Below are positions 18,083 to 46,596 of a stretch of 64,000 nt of DNA, in pieces. Every line of letters starts with the position of its first letter. Position 1 is the stretch's first letter. The DNA is taken from the sequence record MN850615.1, one strand, 5' to 3'. This DNA is from Escherichia phage kvi. Made by a program: the position numbers and the translations under genes. Below the pieces are notes generated by a model, which saw nothing but the letters and a program-made list of their open reading frames with translations, was not told the DNA's origin and ran no database searches.

Positions 18083-18718
18083 TCAAGCGAATGTAGAAAG
18101 CAAACGTTTTGTTTCTTTCAGTTGTCGTTCAAGATCTTTGCGTTTCTCTTTAAGTTGCATTTTAGCATTATTTCGCTCTCTTGTAACCTCTTTATCAATG
18201 CTCTTATTCCAGTTATCAATATCAGAATAAGTTGGCATACCCAATTCTAGACCTAATGCGGTTGGATACAGGGTAACAGTCCATAAACCGCTAATCTTCT
18301 TAAATAGGTCGGGGTGTAGTGTACTATCTACATCTTCCGGTGTCAACTCTTTTTCTTCTTTCAGTGGTGGGATCTCGTCATATGGTTCCAGTGCATTTAC
18401 TTTAATATCAGATACCTCATCAAAGAATCCGCGTACATCCGCAGGAAATACACAAGCAATTTCCCAACCGTGATCACGCAGAGAAGTAATATTTTTCACT
18501 CCCCCACCATGTGTGATGATTGATGTGACATTGCCATCAAGGTCCACCGAATTTACGAGAAATGGCTTATCGTCTGTCAGATCATTATAAAACTGTGCTT
18601 CGGCTGTAGTCATCTCCAGAAACAGATCTCGGATCGGACGACCATCAGGTGCGTTACCTTCCTTGAGAGTATAAAAGCGACTTACGATCCATTTTGGCGG
18701 TAAAGCATTAGCGATCAT
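18083..18718 (-). CDS. hypothetical protein (211 aa)
   Basis: track ORF. Confidence 0.5.
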   Translation of the reverse strand: MIANALPPKWIVSRFYTLKEGNAPDGRPIRDLFLEMTTAEAQFYNDLTDDKPFLVNSVDLDGNVTSIITHGGGVKNITSLRDHGWEIACVFPADVRGFFDEVSDIKVNALEPYDEIPPLKEEKELTPEDVDSTLHPDLFKKISGLWTVTLYPTALGLELGMPTYSDIDNWNKSIDKEVTRERNNAKMQLKEKRKDLERQLKETKRLLSTFA

Positions 18719-21882: not shown

Positions 21883-23359
21883 TTAAATGTCAAACAGGTC
21901 AGTCAGAGAAGCAACTTTCTCATATTGCAGCTTTGCAGCCGTGGTAATGTTCTCCAGTGGTTTGACGAAAGTCTTATTAAACAACAAAGGCCAGTCTAAC
22001 CACTTTAACACCTCTGATTCAATTTCTGGAGGAATACGAGTACCGGACAACCAACCAAAACAGATTTCTCCAAACGGATTTCGATCTTTCAGCGGTACAA
22101 TCATAACCTTCTCGCCCTCACGAATTGGATCTAGTCCGAATTTTCGAGCATTACGATTATAACACAATACACTCTTAACCGCATACGGACAACCCTTAAT
22201 CGGATACCCGTTTGAATCGCTGTATTTCTGTAGGTTGTTTGCAGATGATACCGCAGCAACCTCAAGATAATCAAGTTTTCTAAATTCTTGCTCAAAAATA
22301 CCGTAGTATTCCTGCAATGACTCTTCACCTTCCTGCAACATACGGCGAATACATTCTTTCAGTGATTTCTGACATGCTTTAGGGGTGGAGCTACGTTGCG
22401 TTTCCAAGCCCATGATTTTTAGCTTAGGTTCAGCAAAGCGCGTTCCTTCCATATCCCAAACATTAAGAGCATAACGCTTTTTGCCAGTCCAGAATCCACC
22501 GATACCCGCAGATTTCAACGGAGGACCAGCAATTGCCTCACGGTCCATAAACATCAAGTGCTCATAGTTGTTCATGTACTCGCATAACTCGCGATATCCC
22601 TTGTCGATAATAGGTTCCATTCGATGTTTACCGAAATTATCAAGGAAGTCAACAAGTTTTTCGGTATCGTCGAAACGGTCTTCCCCGCCAACCTTATCAA
22701 CAACATTGTTAACCAGCACATAAACGGAGTCAGTATCACAATAACGAACATATGCAAAATCGGTTGTTCCGCAAAGCTCGTTTAAGTATTCGTTAATCTT
22801 ACGCTCAATCCACTGAATTGCAAGCTGACCAAACAAGGTGATCGCACTAGCGTTACGGAGATCATAAAAACGGAATTTAGGATTCCCCAACGCACCATAA
22901 AGGGAGTTGATCAAAACTTTTCGAGAAAGCTGGTTTGTATTGCACAAGATCGACTCGTCTTTACATTCTTCCAGCAATTTCTCTAAGGCATCTTTACTTA
23001 ATTCAGAAAGCATCGATTTAAACGCTTCATCAAAGTCGTGACGTACTTCAACGCTATAGCTAATGGTTCCCCCATAAACATGATTTTCATCGTGTAGAAT
23101 CGCTTTACAGAGTTCAGCATTGCGATCACATGCCAACATCATGTTTTTGTACTGCTTACGCTGATCGAATACCTTTTTAATCTCAATCGGTACGATACCG
23201 TGAATATCTTTTCTATACATCCATCCGTTAGGAGAGCAAGAATACTCATCACTCGGACGTGGTGCAGTTTTATTGATATACTCGTGCATCGGTGCAGCAT
23301 CAAAAGATCCGGCGATTGTTTCCGGCGAAATGTTAACCTGACGGATGATTGATGGATAC
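21883..23359 (-). CDS. 43: DNA polymerase (family B), exon 2
   Basis: track ORF 21883..23289 extends upstream in frame to 23359 (..YPSIIRQVNISPETI..), continuing exon 1; exons together give about 892 aa. Confidence 0.85.
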
Positions 23360-23499
23360 CATTATGTTCAGCGCGGTTCGCTACTCCCGCGCCCGTTCTC
23401 TTACGAACTGCTACATGTCACCATGTAGATCAGACTATATCACATTCTCATAGAGAATCCTGCCATTTCGAATCGCTTGATTCTACTCTACTCGGTTCG

Positions 23500-24324
23500 T
23501 TACCCTTTCGATAGTCGTTGAACAACTGCATCTTTAAGCTCATTTTGATCAAACGGTGTTCTCTTACAGTACCCGCTATAATTCTTAGCAAAAGGTTTCT
23601 TCTTACCAAAGATCTCTTTTCCTGAATTATGTGATTCAACAAGAAAATTCACCATTTCATCAAATGTGAAACTTGCAAATTTAGCATAAGTTTCATTACG
23701 TTTTGACATTATTTTACTCATAACTTCCGGTCGTTTAGACGCTGAATTTTCGCGTTTCTCGCCAGTATTAAATGATACCAACTCACCGGAAACATATCTA
23801 GGATCATCACAACTAACTCTAAACCGATTTCCTTCCTTATCCTTAACGATAACAGTATTCTTTAGCTTTTCTGCCATAGAATCAAGACCTTTTCGTATAG
23901 TGTCCTCATCAGCCCCGAAATATTTCTTTCCGCTCATATCGGTTCTGGCTTTTCCGGTCTTGTTTTCGGATATTTTCAGTCTAACTTCCTCTCGCTTGGC
24001 TGGGTTATTGTCTCCAGCGAATGCATCTTTGGTTAACGCCTTCACTTTATCGTCATAAGATCCTCTAGAGATGAAAGCATATGCTCTCTTGCATTCACCG
24101 TTATTGAATATTAAGCACAATAACCGATGCGCCTCGACGTGGTCTTCAAACTTAAGCCTAACAAGATTCCATTTATCTAACCGATATTCAGGGAACATTG
24201 ACTTCGGGCATATATGATGCACCTCGGAATATTCTTCACCCTGATACGGATTAGACACCAGTTTAATGTAGTCGTTTAATGCTTCCTCGTTATGTATTTC
24301 GTACTTTCTTAAAATGTCTTTCAT
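23500..24324 (-). CDS. intron-encoded HNH homing endonuclease (274 aa from MKDIL...)
   Basis: HNH motif ..EVHHICPKS..WNLV..H..H; GGAGG SD before ATG at 24324; TATAAATA upstream. Confidence 0.8.
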   Translation of the reverse strand: MKDILRKYEIHNEEALNDYIKLVSNPYQGEEYSEVHHICPKSMFPEYRLDKWNLVRLKFEDHVEAHRLLCLIFNNGECKRAYAFISRGSYDDKVKALTKDAFAGDNNPAKREEVRLKISENKTGKARTDMSGKKYFGADEDTIRKGLDSMAEKLKNTVIVKDKEGNRFRVSCDDPRYVSGELVSFNTGEKRENSASKRPEVMSKIMSKRNETYAKFASFTFDEMVNFLVESHNSGKEIFGKKKPFAKNYSGYCKRTPFDQNELKDAVVQRLSKG

Positions 24325-24347
24325 CTCGCGCCTCCAATGTATATCAA

Positions 24348-24355
24348 TATTTATA
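24348..24355 (-). promoter_or_regulatory. T4-type late promoter motif TATAAATA upstream of the intron ORF
   Basis: rc of 24348..24355 is TATAAATA, about 24 nt upstream of the HNH start codon. Confidence 0.55.
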
Positions 24356-24473
24356 TACATTATAAGACACGTTAGCTCAAAATGCAACTGCTGCTGATTG
24401 TCTCCTTAGAGATTTCCCAGCAATTAAGCAGGTTATTCGATCACTGTCACCAGTGAAAGCCCCATATCAGTTT

Positions 24474-25675
24474 AGGGAAGTAAGGTCAAAGCTCATCATC
24501 CAACGGTAAGCATTCGGCACAGGTTCTTTTACGAATGCGCCTGGATACGTCTGCTTAGGCTGTATCTTATTTTCCGGTACTACTTTACCCTCAGCTTTCA
24601 GAGATCCGAAGATAATAGCATCCCATACTTTCATCGGGTTATAAACATGGTTAAATTTAATCTTTGCATAGAAACATAGACTATACACCAGATCGATAAA
24701 TCCACGCTTTTTATCAATCGCCAGCACACGATCAACGTCGCCGATGTTATAATCGATGTAAAGTTGATGGTTGTCATCACGCAATTTCTTTAACGGACCA
24801 TCATAATCAACCTTACCGATTCCTGTCTCATATTCAGCAACATAATCTAACGCATATGTTGGTTGAGTCGTAAAGCTAAATTTCTTGTATAGGTCAATAT
24901 AATCAAGGCTTTCGATCCCCATGATCGTAAATGCTTCACGCTCGTTGCCAAAATCATCCTGTGAGATTCGGGATTTAATCTTACCGCACGGGCTTAGACG
25001 GTTAGCGGTTCTACTTCCGAACTTATTACTGATACGTTTAATGATATATGGAATATCGAATGTTTCTGTGTTCCAGCCAGTGAAACCAACGGGTCGGTTT
25101 TCCTCAAAGAATCGGATGTATTCTAACAGCAATTCATCTTCTGTGTCATAGACGTTATAAACAACGCGCTCTACAATATCAGGTCGAAGAATAGACTTGC
25201 TAGATTCCCAGATTTCACCGTTTTTTCCTTTCAAATCAAATACAAAGAAACGATCATGTACGGAATCATAATGCGTAATTGCATCGATAGGATATTTCGC
25301 TTCTTCTGGTTTAGGAAATTCTGGGGCAGTGACCTCGATATCAACCCATGCTACACGGATTTTATTTCGGTCATATCGAATCTCTCCTTTATACGTATCA
25401 GACAGATAGGAGATGATAAAATCATCCATCCCTAGCGCCTCTTGCCCCATTTCTCCCATCTTTTTACGCCATTTGTTGGCCTCGTTCATAGAGGGGAATT
25501 TTTTAGCAATGCAAGGCTTGCCATAGATATCTTTATAATTCGTAACCATACCAGGCGCGGCATGATGAAATAAAGTTGGCGTATATTCAACGTAACGCTC
25601 TTGTTCTTGTCCAGCATCATCAATATAACGCTCGTAGATCTTATCACCTACTCGCTCACATGACAGAAAATACAT
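24474..25675 (-). CDS. 43: DNA polymerase (family B), exon 1
   Basis: 3'-5' exo motifs (..VAWVDIEV.., ..YNIGDVD..); ATG at 25675 with AAGGAG SD; in-frame TGA lies 7 nt inside the intron. Confidence 0.85.
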
Positions 25676-25707
25676 AATATAAACTCCTTCACTTACGAAA
25701 GACACTC

Positions 25708-34749: not shown

Positions 34750-36219
34750 CTATTCCCCATTGCCATTATACTTTCTTTGCTTAGTTATCCACACTCTAAC
34801 CATCTCTACAGATTCGCCGTCAGACGGATCAAGAGTTTTTCCTTTTTTCTTCATGCGGTACTTAAATCCGTTAAATCTTGCATTCTCTTGCTCGTTAAAG
34901 TCGAACATCTTTTTAAATGATTTTCGCCCTTTACGCTCACCACATTCTAGCGGAATCATTCGGTCTGTTATTACATTGGCATTAGGTAGAAACGTTTTTA
35001 GATAATCCACCAACGCCCAATCAGGAACATATAGATTAACATTCTCCTTGCTCTCGTTGTCTCTCAGGTTACAACGCAAACATAATTGAAATGCTGGTTC
35101 CAGATAATCAGACACATGACGCGCTTTCAAAAACTCGTTTGTCGGGAGATCACAACTATTAGCAAGACCTTTTAAAATATCAATCTCCCATCGTTGAGGG
35201 TTAAAGCTGAACATCACAGCAACATTTTTATGATGAATGTAAGAGTTAAGACCATAAGATCCGTAAGGTATCCGCTCACCAATACCATTTGTACACGCTT
35301 CTCGGTCCCGATTCACGGTATAAATGAAGTCATCGCCACATTCATTTTTAACCATATCAACAAGACGTTCAAAGGTATTGTTTGTTTCTGACTGGTGACG
35401 CGACCATCGTTCAGAGTCCGTCATAAGGATGATATTAACTCTATCTGTATTTTTATACTCTTTGAAATATAGTCTGGATTCTAGCGCACTCGGAACAAAA
35501 TCGCAATTTGCATAGTATCGTAGATACTTCCCACTATATGTATCAAAGAGATTTGCACATGCTATCGTAACCTTTTTAAAGTCTCCCCACGTACCGTGTT
35601 TGTTATCGTTCAAGAAAACAATTTTCGACCCATTCTTCCGGTGTCCTTCGTTATGTTTTACCATAACGTTGATTTTCTTCTCTAATAACGCCTCATAAAG
35701 CCCTCTAAGAGAAGAATCGATCATATCAGTACCATCCTTCGCACTTTCTATCTTTTCTTTGATAGCGGCCTTCTCAGAGTCTTTTAGAACTAAGTTCTGT
35801 AGGCATTCCGATTCGTCGGCGATTGGTTCGCAATGCTTCGTGATAAGTTCAAGATTAGACTTAAACGGATACTCATTAAATTCAACCAGTTGAGGAACTT
35901 CATCAATGTAAAGAGCATAATCACCAAACATTTTTGAACGTTCCATATTAGATAACGCTGTATGTGTAATGAATATCACATCAGCACCGTCTTTAACTGA
36001 TTGCATTATCGACGCTTGCACTGTCTTAAGGCTTCTTAGTCTTGTGCTATCAATCAAGACAGCACGACCGCCCATTCTTTTAAACTTATTGTAAGATTGT
36101 TCACTTAAAACACGAGATGGCGAAGCAATAACCGCTTTTTCTTTTGTCTCTAGGACGTGGGAAAGTATAGCATCAGTTTTCCCCGCCGCTGGCAATGCGA
36201 TTAATGTTTCAATCTTCAT
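34750..36219 (-). CDS. P-loop NTPase, possibly SF2-helicase-like (489 aa)
   Basis: Walker A ..ALPAAGKT.., motif-Ia-like ..ASPSRVLSEQ.., Walker B ..YIDEVPQ..; basic C-terminal tail. Confidence 0.5.
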   Translation of the reverse strand: MKIETLIALPAAGKTDAILSHVLETKEKAVIASPSRVLSEQSYNKFKRMGGRAVLIDSTRLRSLKTVQASIMQSVKDGADVIFITHTALSNMERSKMFGDYALYIDEVPQLVEFNEYPFKSNLELITKHCEPIADESECLQNLVLKDSEKAAIKEKIESAKDGTDMIDSSLRGLYEALLEKKINVMVKHNEGHRKNGSKIVFLNDNKHGTWGDFKKVTIACANLFDTYSGKYLRYYANCDFVPSALESRLYFKEYKNTDRVNIILMTDSERWSRHQSETNNTFERLVDMVKNECGDDFIYTVNRDREACTNGIGERIPYGSYGLNSYIHHKNVAVMFSFNPQRWEIDILKGLANSCDLPTNEFLKARHVSDYLEPAFQLCLRCNLRDNESKENVNLYVPDWALVDYLKTFLPNANVITDRMIPLECGERKGRKSFKKMFDFNEQENARFNGFKYRMKKKGKTLDPSDGESVEMVRVWITKQRKYNGNGE

Positions 36220-36524
36220 TAGAAACCCTTACGTCGTGCTTTCTGGCATTTCTTGATCATTTTATCAGAAATTTCGCGCTTAGGTGCAATCTCTTTCACA
36301 CCGAAAGCACTAATGCCAAATTCAGAGAGAATATATTCAACCAACAATTCACGCACACGCGCTTTACCGATATTCACGCCGTTATTTTTCAGATATGTCT
36401 GGCCTTCGACTTGCATCAGATCTAAATCCGCGTCGGTAATATTGATTTCTTCCATGCGCCCAAATCGAGAATAAACCATGTGTGCGATTGCATTGTGTAC
36501 TAACATAATATATTCCTCACTCAA
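36219..36524 (-). CDS. hypothetical protein (101 aa)
   Basis: track ORF. Confidence 0.45.
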   Translation of the reverse strand: MSEEYIMLVHNAIAHMVYSRFGRMEEINITDADLDLMQVEGQTYLKNNGVNIGKARVRELLVEYILSEFGISAFGVKEIAPKREISDKMIKKCQKARRKGF

Positions 36525-36526
36525 GA

Positions 36527-36686
36527 ATTACTTAATGATACTTACTTTACCAGATCCGTGACAATGAGCGCAACACCCATCACCACGCAATCCTGTTCCG
36601 TTACAGTGTTTACACTTCTTCAACGGTAAAGCCATTATAGCAAATAAAGCAATAATGAACACCGAAACTAAATTCTCAATAATCAT
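36527..36686 (-). pseudogene. small membrane-anchored ORF with two CxxCxGxG motifs, disrupted by an apparent 1-nt frameshift
   Basis: frame 1 from ATG 36686 gives MIIENLVSVFIIALFAIMALPLKKCKHC then stops; removing one A from the aaa run at about 36598..36600 gives ..CKHCNGTGLRGDGCCAHCHGSGKVSIIK. Confidence 0.35.
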
Positions 36687-36945
36687 AAATCGCCCTCAGT
36701 TCTTTATAGCCTCCAATGTGCTCGTTGTCAATGAATATCTGGGGGTATACAAACCGGAGGCTCTTTGAGTTTAGCCTCCCCGCCAGTTCTTCAATCATAT
36801 CACGGTCGGGAATAATGTCAACCCCGACCTGCTTGAATACTGGTTTAAGTGTATACGGAATACCCAGATCATCCAGTAGCTTCATTGCACTAATACAACC
36901 ATAACAATGATAAGCCTCTTTCGGTATACCGTATATCTCGATCAT
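36676..36945 (-). CDS. nrdH: glutaredoxin-like protein (NrdH-like)
   Basis: 89 aa; CxxC-type active site (..CYGC..), C-terminal ..HIGGYKEL.. glutaredoxin fold signature; next to the nrdG/nrdD region. Confidence 0.7.
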   Translation of the reverse strand: MIEIYGIPKEAYHCYGCISAMKLLDDLGIPYTLKPVFKQVGVDIIPDRDMIEELAGRLNSKSLRFVYPQIFIDNEHIGGYKELRAIYDY

Positions 36946-37442
36946 TTCTCAGCCTTTAATCTTTCTAGTTCTTCTTCCAGTTCCTTGATCCGTTGGTCAC
37001 GTTCAAAGTCACGCTGTAACTTAGTGGCGAATACTCGTTTAAACTGATTGTAATCATCGATTTTAAACACTTCTTCTTCGCCATAGCGACGCACAGAAAC
37101 TTCGTAGTTATTGAAGAATTGTTGCATCATTGCTTCGGATGATAGCTCTGCTGATACCACTTTAAAATATTGATCTTCTGTAGGCGAAAACCAATTACAA
37201 GCATAAAGATAAACCTTTTCATTGTCTGGACACTGGTAAGCCTTACCATCGATTTCAATCACAGAAACATACTCAGGTATACTAGATGAATCAATAGCTA
37301 AGACTTTAAACGCACGGTCCCCGATAAACTCGGAGATCACACGATTCGCATCACTGGTTGCAAATGCTTTACGCGCTTGTTCGTTTTTCCACTGATAGGT
37401 CATACCAACAACAAACATATTACCAACCTCGCTCTTTACCAA
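36942..37442 (-). CDS. member of a tandem paralogous family (N-terminal beta-rich module with ..IEIDG.. and C-terminal helical tail)
   Basis: 166 aa; shares ..TYQWKNE.., ..VIEIDGKAY.., coiled-coil tail with neighbours. Confidence 0.5.
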   Translation of the reverse strand: MVKSEVGNMFVVGMTYQWKNEQARKAFATSDANRVISEFIGDRAFKVLAIDSSSIPEYVSVIEIDGKAYQCPDNEKVYLYACNWFSPTEDQYFKVVSAELSSEAMMQQFFNNYEVSVRRYGEEEVFKIDDYNQFKRVFATKLQRDFERDQRIKELEEELERLKAEK

Positions 37443-38244
37443 TCAAAAATTCAACTTCACGACGTTTAATGTCTTCTTGAAGGTCTTTAATCTTCTGGCG
37501 ATCTTGCATGATTTCATCCATCTTGTCAAGTGCCGCAATGAAATCATCGAAACGTTCAAAGGTTTTACCTTCATTTGCTTCGCCAAATTTAACCATTGTC
37601 AGGCCGTAACGACTACTAAACAGACGTTTCAACTGTCCAACGATCTTAGAATCAGTGGTTATAACTTCCAATTCTTCTACTTCACGAAAGAATTTTCTAT
37701 CAGAATCAATAAACCAGCTAGTTCCTTTATGGTCTCTATCTTCGGTTGCGCTCATTAGAGTATGGTCTTTACCATCAATTTCAATTACATCAATTTGCCC
37801 ACATGGACGAACATTTTTAACAGTAAAAGGTCTATAATTTATTGCTCGTGCAATAACATAATTAAGGTTAGATACGTTTTCAGCATAATGGCAGAAGTCG
37901 GTCATAGCATTCACATCTTTCCAAGTATAAGTTTTACCAACTTCCCATTTCTGGGGAACTTCTTCAACTTCACGAAAGAATTTTCTATCAAATGGACTAA
38001 AGAAATATGTTGCAGTCCAAATGTCTTTTCCTGTAGCAGTTTTCGCCGTATGATAAACACCGTCTAGCTCTATTGCATTAATCCAACCGTTACCCTCGAT
38101 CTCGATGATGGTAAATGGCTTGTCACCAATAGCTGCACTAATATCGCTGTTAAGTGGAGAAAGAACACCTTCTCCGTTAGTAATAAACTCAGTTTTAGCG
38201 TTTTCATCTTTCCAGGTGTAAGTTTTACCAATTTCCCATTTCAT
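37420..38244 (-). CDS. paralogous family member with two tandem copies of the N-terminal module
   Basis: 274 aa; MKWEIGKTYTWKDENAKTEF..IEIEG..FDRKFFREVEE then KWEVGKTYTWKDVNAMTDF..IEIDG..SDRKFFREVEE. Confidence 0.55.
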   Translation of the reverse strand: MKWEIGKTYTWKDENAKTEFITNGEGVLSPLNSDISAAIGDKPFTIIEIEGNGWINAIELDGVYHTAKTATGKDIWTATYFFSPFDRKFFREVEEVPQKWEVGKTYTWKDVNAMTDFCHYAENVSNLNYVIARAINYRPFTVKNVRPCGQIDVIEIDGKDHTLMSATEDRDHKGTSWFIDSDRKFFREVEELEVITTDSKIVGQLKRLFSSRYGLTMVKFGEANEGKTFERFDDFIAALDKMDEIMQDRQKIKDLQEDIKRREVEFLIGKERGW

Positions 38245-38256
38245 AATATATTCCCC

Positions 38257-38757
38257 TTAACCGATTTTATCAAGTTCGTTTAATGCTTTCTCTGCTTCCT
38301 GTATAGCTTGCACTCTTTCCGGCATTTTGTCAAGAAAATCTTTCAACTCTTCAAAACTGGAGATATGACGCAAGGCATTAGCACCGATAGCCGCATGTGA
38401 TTTGCATTCAAAGCGAATTTTATAATTATCCATCGCCAATTTGAGAAGGTCTATTAGATCATATTCATGACCAGGCAATAAAACTTCTTTGAAGCACGCT
38501 CGGTCGCCATCGGAAAACCATATATTATCACCAACATCGATAGAACTAATATAATCCCCTTCGTGATTATAGATTGAACGTACATTACCCCAACGGTCTA
38601 CCGTAGCGACAGTAAATGGTTTATCTAGATATGTAAACACACCATCAATATTAGGTTTTTGTTCGTAACGCCAACAATCACGCAAAATGCGCTTTTCGTC
38701 CTCACCAACCAACTTATATGTCTTCCCTTCTTCCCATTTCATAATATCATCTCTCAT
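38257..38757 (-). CDS. paralogous family member
   Basis: 166 aa; MKWEEGKTYK.., ..DRACFKEV.., helical tail. Confidence 0.5.
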   Translation of the reverse strand: MRDDIMKWEEGKTYKLVGEDEKRILRDCWRYEQKPNIDGVFTYLDKPFTVATVDRWGNVRSIYNHEGDYISSIDVGDNIWFSDGDRACFKEVLLPGHEYDLIDLLKLAMDNYKIRFECKSHAAIGANALRHISSFEELKDFLDKMPERVQAIQEAEKALNELDKIG

Positions 38758-39283
38758 TTTTGATACGTGATTCTAATTGGATCATACGGTCGCGCGTTTG
38801 CTTGTATTCGCGGATAGCACCGATCCGGCTAGGCATACCATCCAGTACGCTCTTAATACCTTCTATGGTAGTAATTTTGGCAATGCTATTATGTAACCCC
38901 ATCTTATCGATCAACTGAATGTCGTAGGCTTCCATAAGCAGACCCAGACGTTCTAAAGTTAGGTCTTCTTCTTTTTCTTCCGATTCTGGAATCTTAGGTT
39001 CAATAGTAACTTCGGTAAAGAAACGACGCTCACCCGACCAAAACCACACACCGGAACAGCCAATAGGGGATTCTTTTAACGTCATAGAGTCGAAATTACT
39101 ATTATTGGTAGTAATTTCTCTAACATCACCATCATCGTCAAGGTCTTCTACCCTAAACGGGCGACCAGCCAACAAGTCAACAATACATCTGTTAATAGAC
39201 GACGAAAATTTAGTCAGTTCGGCTTTCGACGCTTCGCATTCAATCTTGTAAGTTTTACCAACTTCCCATTCCATAATAATCAC
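38747..39283 (-). CDS. paralogous family member
   Basis: 178 aa; MEWEVGKTYK.., ..ERRFFTEV.., helical tail. Confidence 0.5.
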   Translation of the reverse strand: MIIMEWEVGKTYKIECEASKAELTKFSSSINRCIVDLLAGRPFRVEDLDDDGDVREITTNNSNFDSMTLKESPIGCSGVWFWSGERRFFTEVTIEPKIPESEEKEEDLTLERLGLLMEAYDIQLIDKMGLHNSIAKITTIEGIKSVLDGMPSRIGAIREYKQTRDRMIQLESRIKNER

Positions 39284-39284
39284 C

Positions 39285-39794
39285 TCAAATAATTTTCACT
39301 GGAATACTATTAACAATCTTGTATTGTACTTGATTGTCAGACCCCCGCCACGGCTTCTTCGTTGGCATATCTTTAATATAACGCCCATCGATGAACATGT
39401 CAACTGATTCTACAATTTTTCTTTGCTCATCATTCAATTGGTCAAGGGTATAACCAGACCATAGCCAAATATCTTTATTTGGCATCCATGATTTTACTTC
39501 ATCGATGATCCGCTGTACACCCTTTAAATTGCGTTTATACAATGGATCGCCACCTAAGAATGTTAGCCCCTGAATAAAATCAGGTCTAAGCAGATCCAGA
39601 ATCAATCCCATTGTATCATCGGTGAATGGTTCCCCGTTCTTAGGATTGAGTAGGCTAGCATTAAAGCAACCATCACATGCGTGTGAACATCCGGTAACGT
39701 AAAGGGAGACTCTCACTCCCTCACCGTTCACCATATCACAATCTTTAATATCGGCATAGCGTAGCTTGCCGTATGTATCAGAACTCATATTCAA
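39285..39794 (-). CDS. nrdG: anaerobic ribonucleotide reductase activating protein (radical SAM)
   Basis: 169 aa; cysteine cluster ..GCSHACDGCFN.. Confidence 0.85.
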   Translation of the reverse strand: MNMSSDTYGKLRYADIKDCDMVNGEGVRVSLYVTGCSHACDGCFNASLLNPKNGEPFTDDTMGLILDLLRPDFIQGLTFLGGDPLYKRNLKGVQRIIDEVKSWMPNKDIWLWSGYTLDQLNDEQRKIVESVDMFIDGRYIKDMPTKKPWRGSDNQVQYKIVNSIPVKII

Positions 39795-39930
39795 TTACCC
39801 CGAACTCGTTTACAATCTGCGCTTTATAGTAACCACCGCGAGATGCTAATAGATAAGCTGGGCTTAGGTATTCGTATTCACGGATTTCTACTTGTGCGTT
39901 TTCAGTTTCCCAAATCAGTAAAGTCCACAT
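39778..39930 (-). CDS. hypothetical small protein (50 aa)
   Basis: track ORF 39778..40005 trimmed to ATG 39930 with AGGAGAATCAAAT leader. Confidence 0.4.
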   Translation of the reverse strand: MWTLLIWETENAQVEIREYEYLSPAYLLASRGGYYKAQIVNEFGVIEYEF

Positions 39931-39972
39931 ATTTGATTCTCCTGTAAAGTTGTATCTCGTCTTGATGAATAT

Positions 39973-40002
39973 AGTATAGGGGATCGCGAGATCCCCGTCA
40001 AG
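39973..40002 (-). promoter_or_regulatory. sigma70-type promoter with palindromic spacer (TTGACG-ggggatctcgcgatcccc-TATACT)
   Basis: rc of 39997..40002 TTGACG; rc of 39973..39978 TATACT; palindromic spacer. Confidence 0.55.
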
Positions 40003-40005
40003 CAT

Positions 40006-40554
40006 TTATTTTAAATTTTTTCGAATGTATTCAGACCATTCCTTCCCTGTCATTTCGGACCCATTCTGGAAACTGAAATATTCATACGGCATCGAGTCAA
40101 GATAAAACAGGATCATACATCGCGCCATATAATACCAATCACGATTAAAGTAAACTACGTTATCGCCAGTACCATCAGCACCTTTATCATAACCATCGCG
40201 GGTACGGGCGACCCATTGAATAGTATCATTTTTCTCACGGATCGTAACAGGTTCCCAATATCCAGCACATCCAGCATGACCACACGAACAAGTCAGGAAA
40301 TATTGACCTTTTGCTTTGTTGTCATCCCATTCACGATGGATTGGTTCGATCTCGTGAAACAGTGCTAAGCAATCATGATTATGCAACACTGGCTTACCAT
40401 CAATCAATGCATGGAATGTATACAAACGACCAGTAGACAAATAGCTATCCTCACGCTCAACCAGTTCAATAGCAATCTTTTTAGCTCGTTCTTTGTGTCG
40501 TTGTGCTTTACGCTTACGGTTTAATGATTTCATATTCACCTCACACATTATCAA
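40006..40554 (-). CDS. hypothetical protein (182 aa)
   Basis: track ORF. Confidence 0.5.
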   Translation of the reverse strand: MIMCEVNMKSLNRKRKAQRHKERAKKIAIELVEREDSYLSTGRLYTFHALIDGKPVLHNHDCLALFHEIEPIHREWDDNKAKGQYFLTCSCGHAGCAGYWEPVTIREKNDTIQWVARTRDGYDKGADGTGDNVVYFNRDWYYMARCMILFYLDSMPYEYFSFQNGSEMTGKEWSEYIRKNLK

Positions 40555-41096
40555 AGGTCGCGATATAGTACATTATGAAAATGAGAACTTGCATTACCAA
40601 TATTGTAGATAATAAATTCTTCATCCGGCGCTTGCGCTACAAATTGAGTATGAGCAACCGCCACAACCTTAAAAATACGATCCGTGATCTTGTGTTTAAT
40701 TTCGGCTCCTACTTCCATAGGAACATATTCATGTGTTTCTGTTTCAGTCGCAAAACAGCCATCTTCTTCATAAGCACGAACAAATCGATCGCAATCAGTA
40801 CGCTTAACAAATTCAAGAGTATACAATTCTCGTGAATTGTCGGTATAGACTAATACAGAATTATTCTGATAGCGAATCACATACAGGTTATTATCATCGT
40901 CAATTACGCAAAAGCTACGGATTTGTGTTCCTTCGCCTTTACTCCAGCAGATATTAACCACAGTTCCTCTAATAAAAAAACTTTCCTTTAAATTAAAACT
41001 AGCCAATGTGCTAGCGTGCATTTTAACAACAACACCATCGCCAATTTCCAGTTTACGAAGTTTAACTTCTTTGTTCAGTACACAAAACATCATCAT
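40551..41096 (-). CDS. hypothetical protein (181 aa)
   Basis: track ORF. Confidence 0.5.
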   Translation of the reverse strand: MMMFCVLNKEVKLRKLEIGDGVVVKMHASTLASFNLKESFFIRGTVVNICWSKGEGTQIRSFCVIDDDNNLYVIRYQNNSVLVYTDNSRELYTLEFVKRTDCDRFVRAYEEDGCFATETETHEYVPMEVGAEIKHKITDRIFKVVAVAHTQFVAQAPDEEFIIYNIGNASSHFHNVLYRDL

Positions 41097-41124
41097 GTTG
41101 TCCTCTCGTTGTTTTCGATGTGAG

Positions 41125-41152
41125 CATTATACATTAGCTAATCATGTTGTCA
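41125..41152 (-). promoter_or_regulatory. sigma70-type promoter (TTGACA-N16-TATAAT)
   Basis: rc of 41147..41152 TTGACA; rc of 41125..41130 TATAAT. Confidence 0.55.
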
Positions 41153-41161
41153 ACACCCCAA

Positions 41162-41190
41162 AACGAAAAAGCCGACCCTTTCGGATCGGC
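41162..41190 (-). terminator. rho-independent terminator after nrdD
   Basis: hairpin agccga..tcggct followed on minus by TTTTTCGTTTT. Confidence 0.6.
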
Positions 41191-41196
41191 TGAAAT

Positions 41197-43059
41197 TTAC
41201 ATGTGCTTAACGCGGTTTACCATCTCGGAGTGTTTCCCGTGGTTAAATGGACGCAGATCAACAGATCCAAGATATCCACTAACGCGACGGATAACATTCA
41301 TCTTTTCCAGATTGTCATTGCCGCAATCAGGACAAACAAAACCAGACTCGGTTGCTCTCATTTCCTTAGTAGATCCGCATACATGACATACATCAGAAGG
41401 AGTATTAACACCGAAGTAGTGCAATTTATCCATTGCATAGTCTACTACAGTTTCAAGACCTTTCAGGTTGTTTTTCATGTCTGGGAACTCAACATAAGAG
41501 ATCATGCCACCGGACGCCAGCCAGTGATAATCTTTCTCAAAGTCGATTTTCTCAAATGGAGTGACTTTCCGGTCTACGTCAAGGTGGAATGAGTTGGTGT
41601 ACCAGTCTTTATCGGTAGCACCCTTAACAATACCAAATTTCTCTCTGTCCAGTCGATTAAATCGATAGCAAAGACTCTCGGCTGGCGTACCGTAAAGACT
41701 AAACCCAAGTCCGGTTTCGTCCTTCCATTTTTCAGTATAATGACGCAAGATCTTAAGAATATGTTTACCGTATCGCTGCGCATCTTCCGAATCAAACGGA
41801 TGAACACCAAACAGGACGCTCAATACCTCATGTAAACCAATATATCCAAGAGAGATACTAGCGCGACCATCTTTCAGCACTTCCAAAATTTCATCGTTTT
41901 GATGAATACGGAAAAATGCACCTTCTGTATACAGCACCGGAGCAACATTGGCTTTAGCCCCTTTTAAAGCGTCTACGCGACTCATGAGCGCATCAAAGCA
42001 AATAGGCATACGATTAGCTAGCTCTTGTTCGAATAGCTCAATTCTGCGCATTACAGACGCTTTACCAGCACGACGAGCGGCAATAAGGGCAATACGCGGA
42101 AGATTCAGAGTCACAACACCTAAGTTATTACGTCCGTCTAATACTTCTTCGCCTTTCTCATTATGCCACACACCCAGGAAGCTACGACAACCCATCGGGC
42201 TAACCGGAACACTAGATCCAGTGATACTACGGTTATTCTTCGCAGAGATATAATCAGGGTAAAGACGCTTACTAGAACATTCCAATGCAAGTTGCTTAAT
42301 GTCGTAGTTCGGATCTTCCGGTTTAAGGTTTAATCCTTCTTCTAAGAACATCACCAGCTTAGGAAACACCGGAGTGATACCATCTTTACCTAAACCTTTA
42401 GTTCGAACGTTCAGGATCGCTTTCTGAATCAGTTTTTCTTCCCAGCTAGTACCCATACCAAAGGTTAAAGTCACAAAAGGAGTTTGACCGTTGGTGGAGA
42501 ACAAAGTGTTGATTTCATATTCCAACGCTTGATACCCGTCTAACGTTTCTTTTTCTGTCTTCTCTTGTGCATAGAGAGTATCAGCTTTGATTCCGTAGGT
42601 TTCGGCATCAGCAAGGTGTTTATGATATGTTTTCTTAACATACGGTGCTAACACCTGATCAATGTTTGCAATTGTGGTCCCGCCATATTGATGACTTGCC
42701 ACCTGTGCGATAATTTGAGCGGTTACAGCACAAGCAACGCCGATTGATTTCGGACTTTCGATTTGTGCGCTACCCAATTTAAAACCATTCTCTAGCATGT
42801 CTTTAAGATTAACAAGACAGCAGTTAGTAAACGGCATAGCGGGTGCATAATCCATATCATGATAATGAATATCACCGTCTACATGCGCTTTATAGATGTG
42901 CTCAGGTAACACGGTTTTAGCAATCTGTTTAGACACAGCACCAGCAATCAGATCTCGACGTGTCGGGAATGTTCGCGCGTCTTTGTTCGCGTTCTCTTTG
43001 CTTACTTCGTTTTCTTTACCCGTTGCGATCTCTGTAATGTCTTTGATTAGTTTTTCCAT
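41197..43059 (-). CDS. nrdD: anaerobic ribonucleoside-triphosphate reductase (glycyl radical enzyme), uninterrupted
   Basis: 620 aa; C-terminal glycyl-radical motif ..RVSGYLG.. and Zn-ribbon cysteines ..CHVCG..CPDCG.. Confidence 0.9.
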   Translation of the reverse strand: MEKLIKDITEIATGKENEVSKENANKDARTFPTRRDLIAGAVSKQIAKTVLPEHIYKAHVDGDIHYHDMDYAPAMPFTNCCLVNLKDMLENGFKLGSAQIESPKSIGVACAVTAQIIAQVASHQYGGTTIANIDQVLAPYVKKTYHKHLADAETYGIKADTLYAQEKTEKETLDGYQALEYEINTLFSTNGQTPFVTLTFGMGTSWEEKLIQKAILNVRTKGLGKDGITPVFPKLVMFLEEGLNLKPEDPNYDIKQLALECSSKRLYPDYISAKNNRSITGSSVPVSPMGCRSFLGVWHNEKGEEVLDGRNNLGVVTLNLPRIALIAARRAGKASVMRRIELFEQELANRMPICFDALMSRVDALKGAKANVAPVLYTEGAFFRIHQNDEILEVLKDGRASISLGYIGLHEVLSVLFGVHPFDSEDAQRYGKHILKILRHYTEKWKDETGLGFSLYGTPAESLCYRFNRLDREKFGIVKGATDKDWYTNSFHLDVDRKVTPFEKIDFEKDYHWLASGGMISYVEFPDMKNNLKGLETVVDYAMDKLHYFGVNTPSDVCHVCGSTKEMRATESGFVCPDCGNDNLEKMNVIRRVSGYLGSVDLRPFNHGKHSEMVNRVKHM

Positions 43060-43070
43060 TGTATCACCTA

Positions 43071-43094
43071 TTAAAAAGCGGGATTTCTCCCGCT
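43071..43094 (-). terminator. rho-independent terminator
   Basis: hairpin gcgggagaaatcccgc followed on minus by TTTTTAA. Confidence 0.55.
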
Positions 43095-43103
43095 CGTTGA
43101 TAG

Positions 43104-43598
43104 TTATTTTACCAGTTCTGCTAATTCTTTTTCTTTAGCTTCTAGTTCAGCTTTAAGCTGTTTAATCTCTTGTCGCTTCTTATTAGCGGCTTCTTGCTTA
43201 CTATTTCGGATAACCTGATCTAGATACAACTCCCAATCCTGAATATTTTTGATAATGTAACCGTCAACATTAATTGGTCGGAGATTCAGTACAGCTTCCA
43301 GTTTAGTTGCAAAAACTTTAATTGCTGGTGTGAAGTATTCATACTCGTTATCTTCAAACCAATAACCTAGACTTGCATTCTCAATACGAAGATGAAGTTT
43401 AAGATCAAGGTCTTTATCATCGGTATATAGGTCTTTTACACACCCCATAGAATTAACAACAACTTTAAAACGAATTTTATCTACACCACCAAACACATCT
43501 TCAAGAATATCAGCAATTGAGCTATTAGCGCAAGATTGGTCGCTGAATGCGTCAAGATTTTCTTTAGTTACAGTATACCAAACATCTTGTACCCACAT
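43104..43598 (-). CDS. hypothetical protein with C-terminal coiled coil (164 aa)
   Basis: track ORF; K/E-rich heptad tail. Confidence 0.5.
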   Translation of the reverse strand: MWVQDVWYTVTKENLDAFSDQSCANSSIADILEDVFGGVDKIRFKVVVNSMGCVKDLYTDDKDLDLKLHLRIENASLGYWFEDNEYEYFTPAIKVFATKLEAVLNLRPINVDGYIIKNIQDWELYLDQVIRNSKQEAANKKRQEIKQLKAELEAKEKELAELVK

Positions 43599-43652
43599 AA
43601 TATAATCCTCTCGTTGTTAAGTGGGAGTATTATAGCATACTCCCTTCGCATG

Positions 43653-44831
43653 TCAAACACTAACTTTTTTCTTTACTGCTTTCACCTTCTGGCGAATTGC
43701 TCGAATCTCTTCGATCTCTTTTTCAGTCTCTTTAACAATTTCTTTGCGATTCTGAATATCTGTATCGAGATTATCATCAAGTTTAGGCAGCATGTCAATC
43801 AAGAACTTTTTAAGGTCTTTCAGGTTTCGAATAACAGCACCTTCGCCCATTACCGCAACACCCACACCATCCGGCAGATCACCAAACAGCTTAACCAGTT
43901 CAGACAGATGATCATGATCTTCTAGTGCTTCTTCCGGTTCAGATGGCAGTTCAACAAAGTTATAACGTTCATCATTGCTGATCAAGTGATACCAGCAAAG
44001 CCCGAAAGATTTCGGTGTATATTCTACACCATCAATTTCAACCGCGTCAACACTTCCATAATCATCTACTTTAGTTACCTTAAATCCTTGTCCCAGCTTT
44101 TGAACAATTTCAACAACATGACTTGATACAGTTTCAGCGGTAAACCAATATGGCAAATTATGCTGATTTGGCTTGTAGCGTTCACCTACTTTAAATCTCT
44201 GACCATCCGCTTGCATAGCATGAAATTGTTGTTTCGTGATTTCCGCGAAGTATTCAAATTCGCTACCGTCAAACAAGCAATTCCATTGATCACAAAAACG
44301 ATCTGCCTTAACGGTTTCACCTTTCGCGGTGATCATGGTAGCTGATCCGTGCAATTCTTCTTCAACTAAAAAGCCATATTCGACAAAATCAACAAGTTTC
44401 ATGGCTTCTTTGTGCTCTGGGTCATGCTCTCCCCAGAATCGCTTAAATTCTTGCAAACCTTCTGGGGTAAACGAATAACATTTACCTTTTTCAAAGTAAG
44501 TCGGCATTGCATCCTCTTTCTTGTTCATCGCTTCGTATGCCTCTTTTGAGATACGTTTAAAGTATTTGCGCTCATTGTGCATAATCATAGTAGACCAATA
44601 ATAAACGATATCCTCAGCGGAATAAACTACATCTCCAGCTTCAATAGTAATAACATGACCGTGGTCATCTTTTTCTAATACTTTAAAGCCCTTTTCTACG
44701 ATTTCAGCAACCCGAATATGACCACGGCGCGAAGCATCGGTCAGAATAATTGAATAGCGAGAAAAGTCTAGAAACTCATCTTTACCGCCTTCACGGAATG
44801 CATAGTAATGACCTTCAAAGAATTTAGCCAT
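43653..44831 (-). CDS. large member (392 aa) of the paralogous ..EIDG.. family
   Basis: contains ..VDAVEIDGVEY.., ..ERYNFVEL.., ..NERKYFKRI.. and helical tail. Confidence 0.5.
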   Translation of the reverse strand: MAKFFEGHYYAFREGGKDEFLDFSRYSIILTDASRRGHIRVAEIVEKGFKVLEKDDHGHVITIEAGDVVYSAEDIVYYWSTMIMHNERKYFKRISKEAYEAMNKKEDAMPTYFEKGKCYSFTPEGLQEFKRFWGEHDPEHKEAMKLVDFVEYGFLVEEELHGSATMITAKGETVKADRFCDQWNCLFDGSEFEYFAEITKQQFHAMQADGQRFKVGERYKPNQHNLPYWFTAETVSSHVVEIVQKLGQGFKVTKVDDYGSVDAVEIDGVEYTPKSFGLCWYHLISNDERYNFVELPSEPEEALEDHDHLSELVKLFGDLPDGVGVAVMGEGAVIRNLKDLKKFLIDMLPKLDDNLDTDIQNRKEIVKETEKEIEEIRAIRQKVKAVKKKVSV

Positions 44832-44887
44832 AATATAATCCTCTCGTTGTTTAGACGGGAGTATCTTACTACTCCCGTTTCATCATG

Positions 44888-45472
44888 TCAAGCGTTAAAT
44901 GACTTTTGGATCTCTTTCAGTTCAGCTACTTTATCGGCGCTGAATTTAGCGTAGGCATCATGTCGAATAATTTCACTTTCAAGAAAGGTTTCCAGCCGAG
45001 ATCTATTTTCAATAAGGAACTCTTTCAGGTCTTCCGCGTTCTTGATAAAGATTTTATTGTCGGTAATGTCATCTTCAATCGCAAAGGAGATAGAGCGAAC
45101 TTTACCAAACAAGTTAATCAGATCTTCCAGCGATTCTTCATTCTTAACTGGTTTCATTTCTTCAAACTGCTTTTTAGTGATGCGTTTAAAGTATTTGCGC
45201 TCGTTTGCAGCAATCAGAACAGATGCACCTTCATACCCATGAGTTTCTACCAGATACACACGCCCCATCGCATCAACAGTGAGAACTTTAAAGCCGTTAC
45301 AAAGCACGTCATACAAGAACTTATTATGTTGCGGACATCGTTTGATAAATTCTGCGGCTGTTTCTGCATTACGGAAAGTGTAATAACGACCTCGTTCAAA
45401 AACAGCATCATTTGAAGACTTAGCCGGATACAATTTATACGTTTTCTGTACCATAATATAATCCTCTATCAT
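44888..45472 (-). CDS. paralogous family member (194 aa)
   Basis: shares ..NGFKVL.VDAMG.. and ..ANERKYFKRITKKQFEEM.. with 43653..44831. Confidence 0.5.
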   Translation of the reverse strand: MIEDYIMVQKTYKLYPAKSSNDAVFERGRYYTFRNAETAAEFIKRCPQHNKFLYDVLCNGFKVLTVDAMGRVYLVETHGYEGASVLIAANERKYFKRITKKQFEEMKPVKNEESLEDLINLFGKVRSISFAIEDDITDNKIFIKNAEDLKEFLIENRSRLETFLESEIIRHDAYAKFSADKVAELKEIQKSFNA

Positions 45473-45801
45473 TTCACTAATTGAACAGCACGGAACAGAA
45501 TGCGCTCACACGGAAGCAGCATAAATTCCCAACGCGGATCAAAGTCTTTAGCGGTGTATGTTTTCCCATCAACCGAGATTTCACTTACATAACCAACAGG
45601 TGACACTTTAAGAACAGTAAACCCATTCTTGATGACTTCGTAAGTATCTTTCACCCCTTCGTATTCATCATCTAAGAAGTCTTTATGTGCTTGCTCAGAT
45701 TTAAAAACATAGGCCACACCGGATTTAAACATCTTACGCATTGTTGATTCTCCTTCTTGATTAGATGGGAGTATTTTACTACTCCCATTTCTTATTGTCA
45801 A
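45469..45801 (-). CDS. paralogous family member (110 aa)
   Basis: ..NGFTVLKVSPVGYVSEISVDGKTY.. pattern. Confidence 0.45.
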   Translation of the reverse strand: MTIRNGSSKILPSNQEGESTMRKMFKSGVAYVFKSEQAHKDFLDDEYEGVKDTYEVIKNGFTVLKVSPVGYVSEISVDGKTYTAKDFDPRWEFMLLPCERILFRAVQLVK

Positions 45802-45804
45802 CTA

Positions 45805-46278
45805 CTATCTTAATCTTTGTATGAATTGTTTCTTATACTTCTTCGTGATCTCTTCTCTTGTATCCGCGTCACAGTAATCGAAACCTTCTGCGTCCATAAT
45901 AGCAACCATCTCCGCTCGTGTCAAGCGTGAAAATCGTTTTACTTTATCAACAGCATATTGAGGATGTAAATGATTGTTGGTGTAGTCTCCTTTGATGTAA
46001 TTAACATAGTTTGTAGCCCAAACAACGAAATCAGCACCTAAAGCACCAACACCAAACCGTTTAAAGTCTCCGGTCAACGATCCTTCTAGGCGGTTGCAAC
46101 ACGAATGAAGCAATCCCCTTACGCGGCCTTGCCCTTTCCCATCTAGATCATGATCATGGTCAAGATGGTTTTTGCTCATATCCTCAAAAAGTGGCAATTG
46201 ACAAAGGGGGCAAATGCCCCCCTGTTTTTCGAATAGTTCTTGTTTGTACTCTTTAGCACTCTTAGCAGTCAGTAACAT
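45805..46278 (-). CDS. 49: endonuclease VII (Holliday junction resolvase)
   Basis: ATG 46278 gives 157 aa; ..CPLCQ..NHLDHDHDL..GLLHSCCN.. His-Me/zinc motifs as in T4 endoVII. Confidence 0.85.
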   Translation of the reverse strand: MLLTAKSAKEYKQELFEKQGGICPLCQLPLFEDMSKNHLDHDHDLDGKGQGRVRGLLHSCCNRLEGSLTGDFKRFGVGALGADFVVWATNYVNYIKGDYTNNHLHPQYAVDKVKRFSRLTRAEMVAIMDAEGFDYCDADTREEITKKYKKQFIQRLR

Positions 46279-46302
46279 AAATTCACCCTCCAAAGAAGGT
46301 AT

Positions 46303-46596
46303 TTAACCATTAATCTTGTTTTTGACTACAAAGGATCTGAACTCATCAAAACCACCTATATAATCACCATTATAGAAAATCTGCGGCATGGTGGCAATAA
46401 CTTCTACCCCTGCGCGATCCTGAATGTCGGCAATGATAGAATCAATCTTTACCGGACGACCGTTTTCGTCTACACCATCATTAACCGGAATGTAGATGTA
46501 AGGGATCTTACGCGATTCACAAAGGCGCTTTGCATTCTGGCAATACTTACAGTTGTAACCTTCAAAACCAAAAATTTCTACCATATTATACCTCAA
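46303..46596 (-). CDS. nrdC: thioredoxin/glutaredoxin-like protein (NrdC-like)
   Basis: 97 aa; active site ..CKYCQNAKRL.. and ..YIGGFDEF..; adjacent to gene 49. Confidence 0.75.
   Translation of the reverse strand: MRYNMVEIFGFEGYNCKYCQNAKRLCESRKIPYIYIPVNDGVDENGRPVKIDSIIADIQDRAGVEVIATMPQIFYNGDYIGGFDEFRSFVVKNKING

Follow-up and report, generated by a model that had tools for sequence, protein, structure and literature searches.

A tandem array of GoF-family genes with variable N-terminal barrel modules downstream of nrdG in Escherichia phage kvi

The window analysed in the present study is a stretch of 64,000 nucleotides (nt) from Escherichia phage kvi (sequence record MN850615.1), and directly downstream of its nrdG gene (39285-39788) lie four consecutive genes on the minus strand, here called G1 to G4, which the first-pass annotation had described as paralogs of a family that it did not recognise. 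They are G1 (38747-39274, 175 amino acids (aa)), G2 (38257-38742, 161 aa), G3 (37420-38244, 274 aa) and G4 (36942-37418, 158 aa), orthologs of RB49 ORF051c, ORF050c, ORF049c and ORF048c, every one of which is annotated as 'hypothetical protein'. Downstream of G4 comes nrdH (36676-36945), its start overlapped by the G4 stop codon, and both nrdG and nrdH run in the same direction as the array. Start codons follow those of RB49, GEC-3S and Makalu; a Shine-Dalgarno sequence precedes each of the genes (GAGGTG for G1), and neighbouring genes are set between a 4- or 5-nt overlap and a 12-nt spacer apart. A megablast search with positions 36000-40500 returned 58 phage records, all of Krischvirus (RB49-like T4-type coliphages), 56 of which cover at least 80% of the query, with phage FL20 as the best match at 99.9%.

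Each of the four proteins opens with a common N-terminal module. In G1 it occupies residues 1-92 (38999-39274) and is followed by an acidic linker (94-103), a C-terminal domain (C-domain) made of a helix and a beta-hairpin (105-136) and a long helix (137-174). The modules of G2 and G4 cover residues 1-90 (38473-38742) and 1-91 (37146-37418), respectively, and in G3 the hidden Markov model (HMM) finds two domains, module a (37954-38244) and module b (37663-37953), ahead of a C-terminal part (37420-37662). The paralogy was borne out by the open reading frames (ORFs) and by BLASTP among the five N-modules, 9 of 10 pairs giving E-values of 1e-6 to 1e-11 and G1 versus G4 alone being not significant. 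The internal duplication proposed for one gene is likewise evident in G3 (modules 50% identical, E 1.7e-27), and the array holds five modules, not the seven copies that had been counted. Moreover, G1 to G4 all match phrog_5347, a family of unknown function, from end to end (profile positions 1-165, E 1e-59 to 1e-92; 2e-63 for G1), so the C-terminal halves are homologous too and the likeness extends well beyond the low-complexity tails. The nucleotide repeats noticed earlier are also real (37895-37951 versus 38186-38242, 82% identical over 57 nt), with a 32-nt repeat family at the starts of G1, G2, G3 and the second module of G3. These repeats are coding sequence of module starts and ends, the starts encoding M-K-W-E-x-G-K-T-Y. 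The duplications are old, identity between the array genes being 23-33%.

The family can now be named. Scanning the array proteins against PHROG gave secondary matches to families labelled 'goF mRNA metabolism modulator', and the cross-matches between the array proteins and the GoF family are reciprocal. T4 GoF in turn matches phrog_5347 over residues 4-137, which indicates that the linker and small C-domain are also common to GoF. The array-module HMM matched residues 4-90 of T4 GoF with 25.5 to 39.9 bits (E 2.4e-12 among T4 ORFs), and hhalign of the family profile against GoF reached 96.5% probability (E 8e-10, 90 columns), with weaker values for Frd.2 and MotB.1 (56% and 62%, E about 1e-4). 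Other RB49-like members already bear the name 'goF mRNA metabolism modulator' in RefSeq. Profile comparisons hence show, as judged by homology, that the array belongs to the T4 GoF/Frd.2 protein family as a branch specific to Krischvirus that has expanded in tandem.

The GoF/Frd.2/MotB.1 family was defined by Kim et al. 2025 on an N-terminal five-stranded barrel, termed 'LSm-like', whose nearest structures are FeoA-type SH3 domains (PMC12152347). GoF, an early protein made in abundance and not essential under laboratory conditions, runs both as a monomer and as a dimer; its D25Y variant stabilises gene 41 mRNA post-transcriptionally, which wild-type GoF and MotB.1 do not (PMC12152347). This was the sole relevant paper found in the literature on goF, frd.2 and RB49, and it makes no mention of RB49, paralog arrays or multi-module forms. 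The family has been described from Tevenvirinae, and Krischvirus belongs to the Straboviridae outside that subfamily; this widens the range of the family and does not exclude membership.

AlphaFold2 models of G1 (mean predicted local distance difference test (pLDDT) score 79.8, module 78-94) and, less well, of G3 (mean 69, most module blocks 77-90) give the module one and the same layout, namely beta1, two helices, beta2, beta3, a short beta4 with a loop, a short helix and beta5. It forms the bent antiparallel five-stranded sheet or barrel typical of the family in predicted structure, with FeoA and SH3-like proteins nearest, and its structural neighbours are those reported for GoF (PMC12152347). 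The flexible linker and C-terminal domain expected after the barrel are found in the G1 model, as a disordered acidic segment (94-103, pLDDT <50), then one helix (105-117), a beta-hairpin (121-134) and, at 137-174, a second helix some 38 residues long. The last of these is the lysine- and glutamate-rich (K/E-rich) helical tail that had been noticed from the letters alone, modelled with block-mean pLDDT of 82-91 over residues 151-175. Taken together, the models show a predicted architecture of one or two SH3/FeoA-like barrels with a two-helix insert, an acidic linker, a helix-hairpin C-domain and an amphipathic K/E-rich helix of about 35 residues. No Sm or Hfq structure occurred among the top 60 structural matches, and the marks of Sm/LSm/Hfq proteins (Sm1/Sm2 motifs, an N-terminal helix followed by five strands, a ring-forming RNA binder) were not found; the predicted fold of the array is better described as SH3/FeoA-like than as LSm. 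The remote-homology search and structure prediction suggested at first pass thus led to GoF kinship and to an SH3/FeoA-like barrel.

As to distribution, scans of the four array proteins against Pfam and NCBIfam gave sub-threshold noise only, without a match to FeoA (PF04023), and sequence-profile searches over all PDB chains found no solved relative. A word-indexed search of 5.8 billion proteins returned Krischvirus-type orthologs only (77 clusters), and IMG/VR contributed just two extra loci. An exhaustive profile search of 1.84 billion representatives gave 97 hits at E up to 0.001, some 80 of them small one- to three-module proteins, which points to a small, phage-restricted family. Two of the long hits (P0087 and P0094) were inspected and are repeat proteins that look spurious, and the other 15 or so are presumed to be alike. 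Foldseek against viral models found 56 relatives at E up to 0.001, those named in UniProt being all uncharacterised or Dc2. Many T4-like phages (of Aeromonas, Edwardsiella, Proteus, Pectobacterium, Citrobacter and others) contribute to this set, as do a small number of other large myoviruses, and one phage often has several.

Within kvi itself the family reaches well beyond the interval 36942-39283 to which it had been assigned. An HMM of the five array modules, run against all six-frame ORFs of the window, detected five further genes with seven more modules at 43104-45801 and 18083-18718, bringing the total to 9 genes and 12 modules; in the rest of the RB49 genome (~100 kb) the same HMM found no match. 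Four of these genes form a second cluster on the minus strand between gene 49 and nrdD (43104-45801, E 1e-21 to 1e-25 per module after iteration): 43104-43598 (164 aa), 43653-44831 (392 aa, three modules; RB49 'frd.2', ORF058c), 44888-45472 (194 aa) and 45469-45801 (a single module of about 90 aa). The cluster matches phrog_8944, 'goF mRNA metabolism modulator'. Three of its genes are preceded by near-identical cassettes of promoter and 5' leader (a -10 hexamer, ACTCCC ... GAGAGGATTATATT, ATG), which we take to resemble the mobile early-promoter cassettes of RB49-type phages. The ninth member, at 18083-18718 on the minus strand (211 aa, E 6e-26 after iteration, phrog_16187), corresponds to RB49 dc2 and is annotated Dc2. 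It lies directly downstream of the gene 41 helicase, the gene on whose mRNA T4 GoF(D25Y) acts, whether by coincidence or not. A 111-aa ORF at 61984-62316 (minus strand) gave a weak partial match to the module HMM (23 bits, model positions 29-59) and is either a chance hit or a remote relative. In T4 the unrelated 55.8 gene alone stands between nrdG and nrdH, and gene 49 and nrdD have nothing between them; the array and the second cluster therefore represent insertions relative to T4.

Concerning expression, a consensus scan placed a sigma-70-type promoter-like site at 39973-40001 on the minus strand, upstream of the series ORF053c-nrdG-G1 to G4-nrdH and at the position annotated as a promoter in GEC-3S, and a second such site (11/12 match) inside nrdG at 39375-39403, also on the minus strand. 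The late-promoter motif TATAAATA was not found near the array, nor was any terminator-like site within it, and Rfam reported no RNA family in 36000-46500. From these sequence signals we infer that the array would be transcribed early, together with nrdG and nrdH. Elsewhere, directly after nrdD, a strong terminator-like hairpin (41126-41191, minus strand; 9 pairs, 6 of them GC, and a T-run) has, no more than 20 nt beyond it, a perfect match to the sigma-70 promoter (12/12), and the two make up a putative terminator-promoter cassette at a gene-block boundary.

The most telling feature of the array is the way in which it varies. When the window was compared with seven Krischvirus loci in 60-nt steps, nucleotide identity was 93-100% in nrdG, nrdH and 55.2 as well as in the C-terminal part of each array gene, and it dropped, with sharp edges, only within the module-coding segments of about 290 nt. 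The G1 module differs in FL04 and one IMG/VR contig (45-68% nucleotide identity), the G2 module in RB49 (35-63%), module b of G3 in FL04 and one IMG/VR contig, L011 (30-80%), and the G4 module in five loci (45-77%). In RB49 the G2 module is an alternative cassette, 42% identical to that of kvi, and an alternative type of G4 module (57% aa identity) is shared by E26, Makalu, FL04, FL15 and two IMG/VR contigs. When 99 distinct modules were clustered, each alternative type fell nearest to the module that it replaces (40-57% aa identity, against 20-35% to other slots). We rejected gene conversion within the array, by which the cassettes would be copies of other paralogs, as each is nearest to its own slot; on this clustering the cassettes are slot-specific allelic lineages. 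Across protein clusters at 90% identity, mean pairwise aa identity was 65-76% for the N-terminal parts, with the exception of G3 module a (95%), and 92-97% for the C-terminal parts. The G1 module is the most polymorphic part (38 such clusters), and in the common G1 type site entropy was about 0.5 in the barrel helices and loops versus 0.10 in the C-domain. These comparisons show the predicted barrel-coding segments to be polymorphic at the level of cassettes.

Gene number and order, on the other hand, are stable: the comparison of copy number proposed at first pass revealed no whole-gene change across the examined Krischvirus records. The 'rapid tandem diversification' put forward there accordingly has to be divided, for the tandem duplications are old and it is the N-module within each gene slot that diversifies. 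The second cluster at 43104-45801 keeps 91-98% identity throughout Krischvirus, with no low-identity cassette seen in it. Its best match over 43060-45860 is phage W115 (98.4%), FL20 reaching 92.5% there as opposed to 99.9% at the array, so that the genome is a mosaic of close Krischvirus lineages. Over 46 kb of the window, comparison with RB49 gave five spots below 85% identity, the G2 module among them.

A separate observation concerns the DNA polymerase gene 43 (21883-25705, minus strand), which is interrupted by an insert of about 1.35 kb, absent from RB49, that leaves it as two ORFs (24467-25705 and 21883-23289). The insert contains a 295-aa HNH-type endonuclease ORF (23500-24387) and a sub-threshold Rfam group I intron match (23411-23671, 30.6 bits, E 1.9e-5), and it is probably a mobile intron with a homing endonuclease.

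Could such variation simply mean that nothing depends on these genes? They might be no more than expendable remnants of old duplications in a hyperplastic region, with modules that vary through relaxed constraint and neutral recombination. Several losses would fit this view. One module of G3 (module b) is deleted in E26, leaving a 178-aa protein, and ELT4 and AV108 look alike, which makes three records; the G2 ortholog of FL15 (L014, 1008-1488) is annotated as two overlapping short coding sequences, which suggests a frameshift or a sequencing error, with loss of G2 possible; and T4 manages with 55.8 alone at this position. Yet all four genes are present in the 58 Krischvirus records, with intact reading frames, Shine-Dalgarno sequences and coupled stop and start codons. 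The ratio of nonsynonymous to synonymous substitution rates (dN/dS) argues in the same direction: in the C-terminal part it was 0.0-0.2 between sequences of the same allele and did not exceed 0.26 across deep alleles, and even deeply diverged cassettes gave 0.25-0.58 with core residues kept (flanking nrdG, 0-0.13). In G1 the N-terminal part had 0.35-1.07, from small counts, versus 0.05-0.18 for the C-terminal part. The C-terminal half thus shows the signature of strong purifying selection, and we consider the leftover explanation very improbable.

What, then, would the barrels bind? One answer is RNA: as LSm-like proteins, the modules would bind phage mRNAs, or the 5' leaders of these, directly and stabilise them in the way proposed for GoF(D25Y), with paralogs and alleles differing in RNA specificity. 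In its favour, the fold has been called LSm-like, and with GoF(D25Y) a gene 41 leader-reporter RNA has a longer half-life (PMC12152347). The array adds to this a conserved basic cluster in the motifs of beta1 (K-W-E-x-G-K-T-Y) and beta5 (E-R-K-F-F-R-E-V), and G84, the residue changed in the GoF suppressor G84R, lies within the conserved motif E-R-K-F-F-x-E-V at a position where G3 module a, G3 module b and G1 natively have K, K and R. However, all the array proteins are acidic, with an isoelectric point of 4.8-5.1 and a net charge of -2 to -6 per module, and this speaks for a protein as ligand more than for RNA; Sm features are absent from the modules, wild-type GoF is not RNA-stabilising, and a conserved RNA target needs no allelic cassettes. 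Protein binding is therefore favoured over direct RNA binding, and we regard the RNA reading as unlikely.

Because among close relatives the N-terminal barrel alone is swapped or hypervariable, it looks like a target-recognition module. Our best explanation as a whole, to which we give about an even chance, is that the array is a GoF-family branch of acidic and probably dimeric binders with a variable recognition barrel on a constant scaffold, made early and acting on host RNA-handling or defence factors. The C-terminal helix may dimerise the protein or dock on a common partner, and the barrel would bind a macromolecule that differs between host strains. The likeliest target would be a host protein with a part in RNA metabolism, in the termination of transcription or in RNA-targeting defence, and paralogs and alleles could widen the target range, protecting phage transcripts or neutralising host factors. 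The role in host interaction or counter-defence on which the first-pass annotation had speculated fits this pattern of variation, although the pattern does not demonstrate it. A neighbouring possibility revives the original 'antitermination' idea for comC-alpha: the proteins could be modulators of host transcription or termination, the barrel docking on RNA polymerase or Rho in the manner of a KOW or Tudor domain, which we think quite improbable.

Several points weigh against the recognition-barrel explanation. Wild-type GoF has little effect on the reporter, and wild-type GoF as well as MotB.1 and Frd.2 have no known function and are all dispensable in the laboratory (PMC12152347). The dN/dS values stay below 1 throughout except for a single pair that has very few substitutions, which falls short of demonstrating positive selection, and as the clusters were defined at 90% whole-protein identity, the variability figures come from a biased sample. 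In the tail, hydrophobic residues fill 7-9 of the 13 a/d positions, a moderate heptad pattern, and the case for early transcription consists of promoter-like sequences and another group's annotation of GEC-3S.

In its boldest form, our explanation would make the array a polymorphic binder system, in which SH3-like barrels on a dimerising C-domain are shuffled between phages as cassettes of about 290 nt to neutralise strain-variable host factors, e.g., RNA-targeting toxins or other defence proteins. This is a tentative proposal that we hold to be rather unlikely as it stands; if true, the GoF family would at last have a function, namely counter-defence by means of a specificity code at the level of proteins. 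What we describe is a known family with newly placed members, the assignment to which is demonstrated and the mechanism of which we infer. GoF has puzzled geneticists since rho suppressors were studied in the 1970s-90s, and its family was recognised in 2025. The present locus extends that family beyond Tevenvirinae, to as many as 9 genes and 12 modules in one phage and to multi-module proteins, and natural variation suggests that specificity resides in the N-terminal barrel and that the C-terminal half is what stays constant. As Krischvirus phages are therapeutic candidates, variable early genes that may shape host range also matter in practice.

Among known systems, T4 GoF (ComC-alpha, 141 aa) comes nearest, with a homologous N-terminal barrel, an acidic linker, a small C-terminal strand-helix domain and an acidic character overall, and like the array it is encoded among early and DNA-metabolism genes. 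It differs in being a single-copy, one-module protein of about 23% identity without the K/E-rich terminal helix of some 35 residues, and it adjoins gene 39 instead of nrdG and belongs to phrog_622, not phrog_5347. Frd.2 and MotB.1 of T4, non-essential early proteins, have the same predicted barrel family and domain order (PMC12152347), whereas their sequence link to the array is weak and their C-terminal parts differ. The RB49 'frd.2' cluster, tandem and multi-module in the same phage, shares the module, the C-domain and the K/E-rich tail, but it is already goF/frd.2-like in RefSeq, shows 17-37% identity to the array modules and has its own promoter cassette for each gene. The SH3-like domains of FeoA and of the C-termini of DtxR/IdeR lack sequence similarity to the phage module, which has a two-helix insert and no link to metal or iron. 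Finally, the internal-protein (IP) locus of T-even phages is unrelated in sequence and fold; its products are head-packaged and encoded by late genes, and their constant part is the N-terminal capsid-targeting signal. Its organisation is nevertheless akin to that of the array, a short constant part being joined to a highly polymorphic part that is swapped as cassettes among close relatives, and one of its products, IPI*, is an anti-restriction factor.

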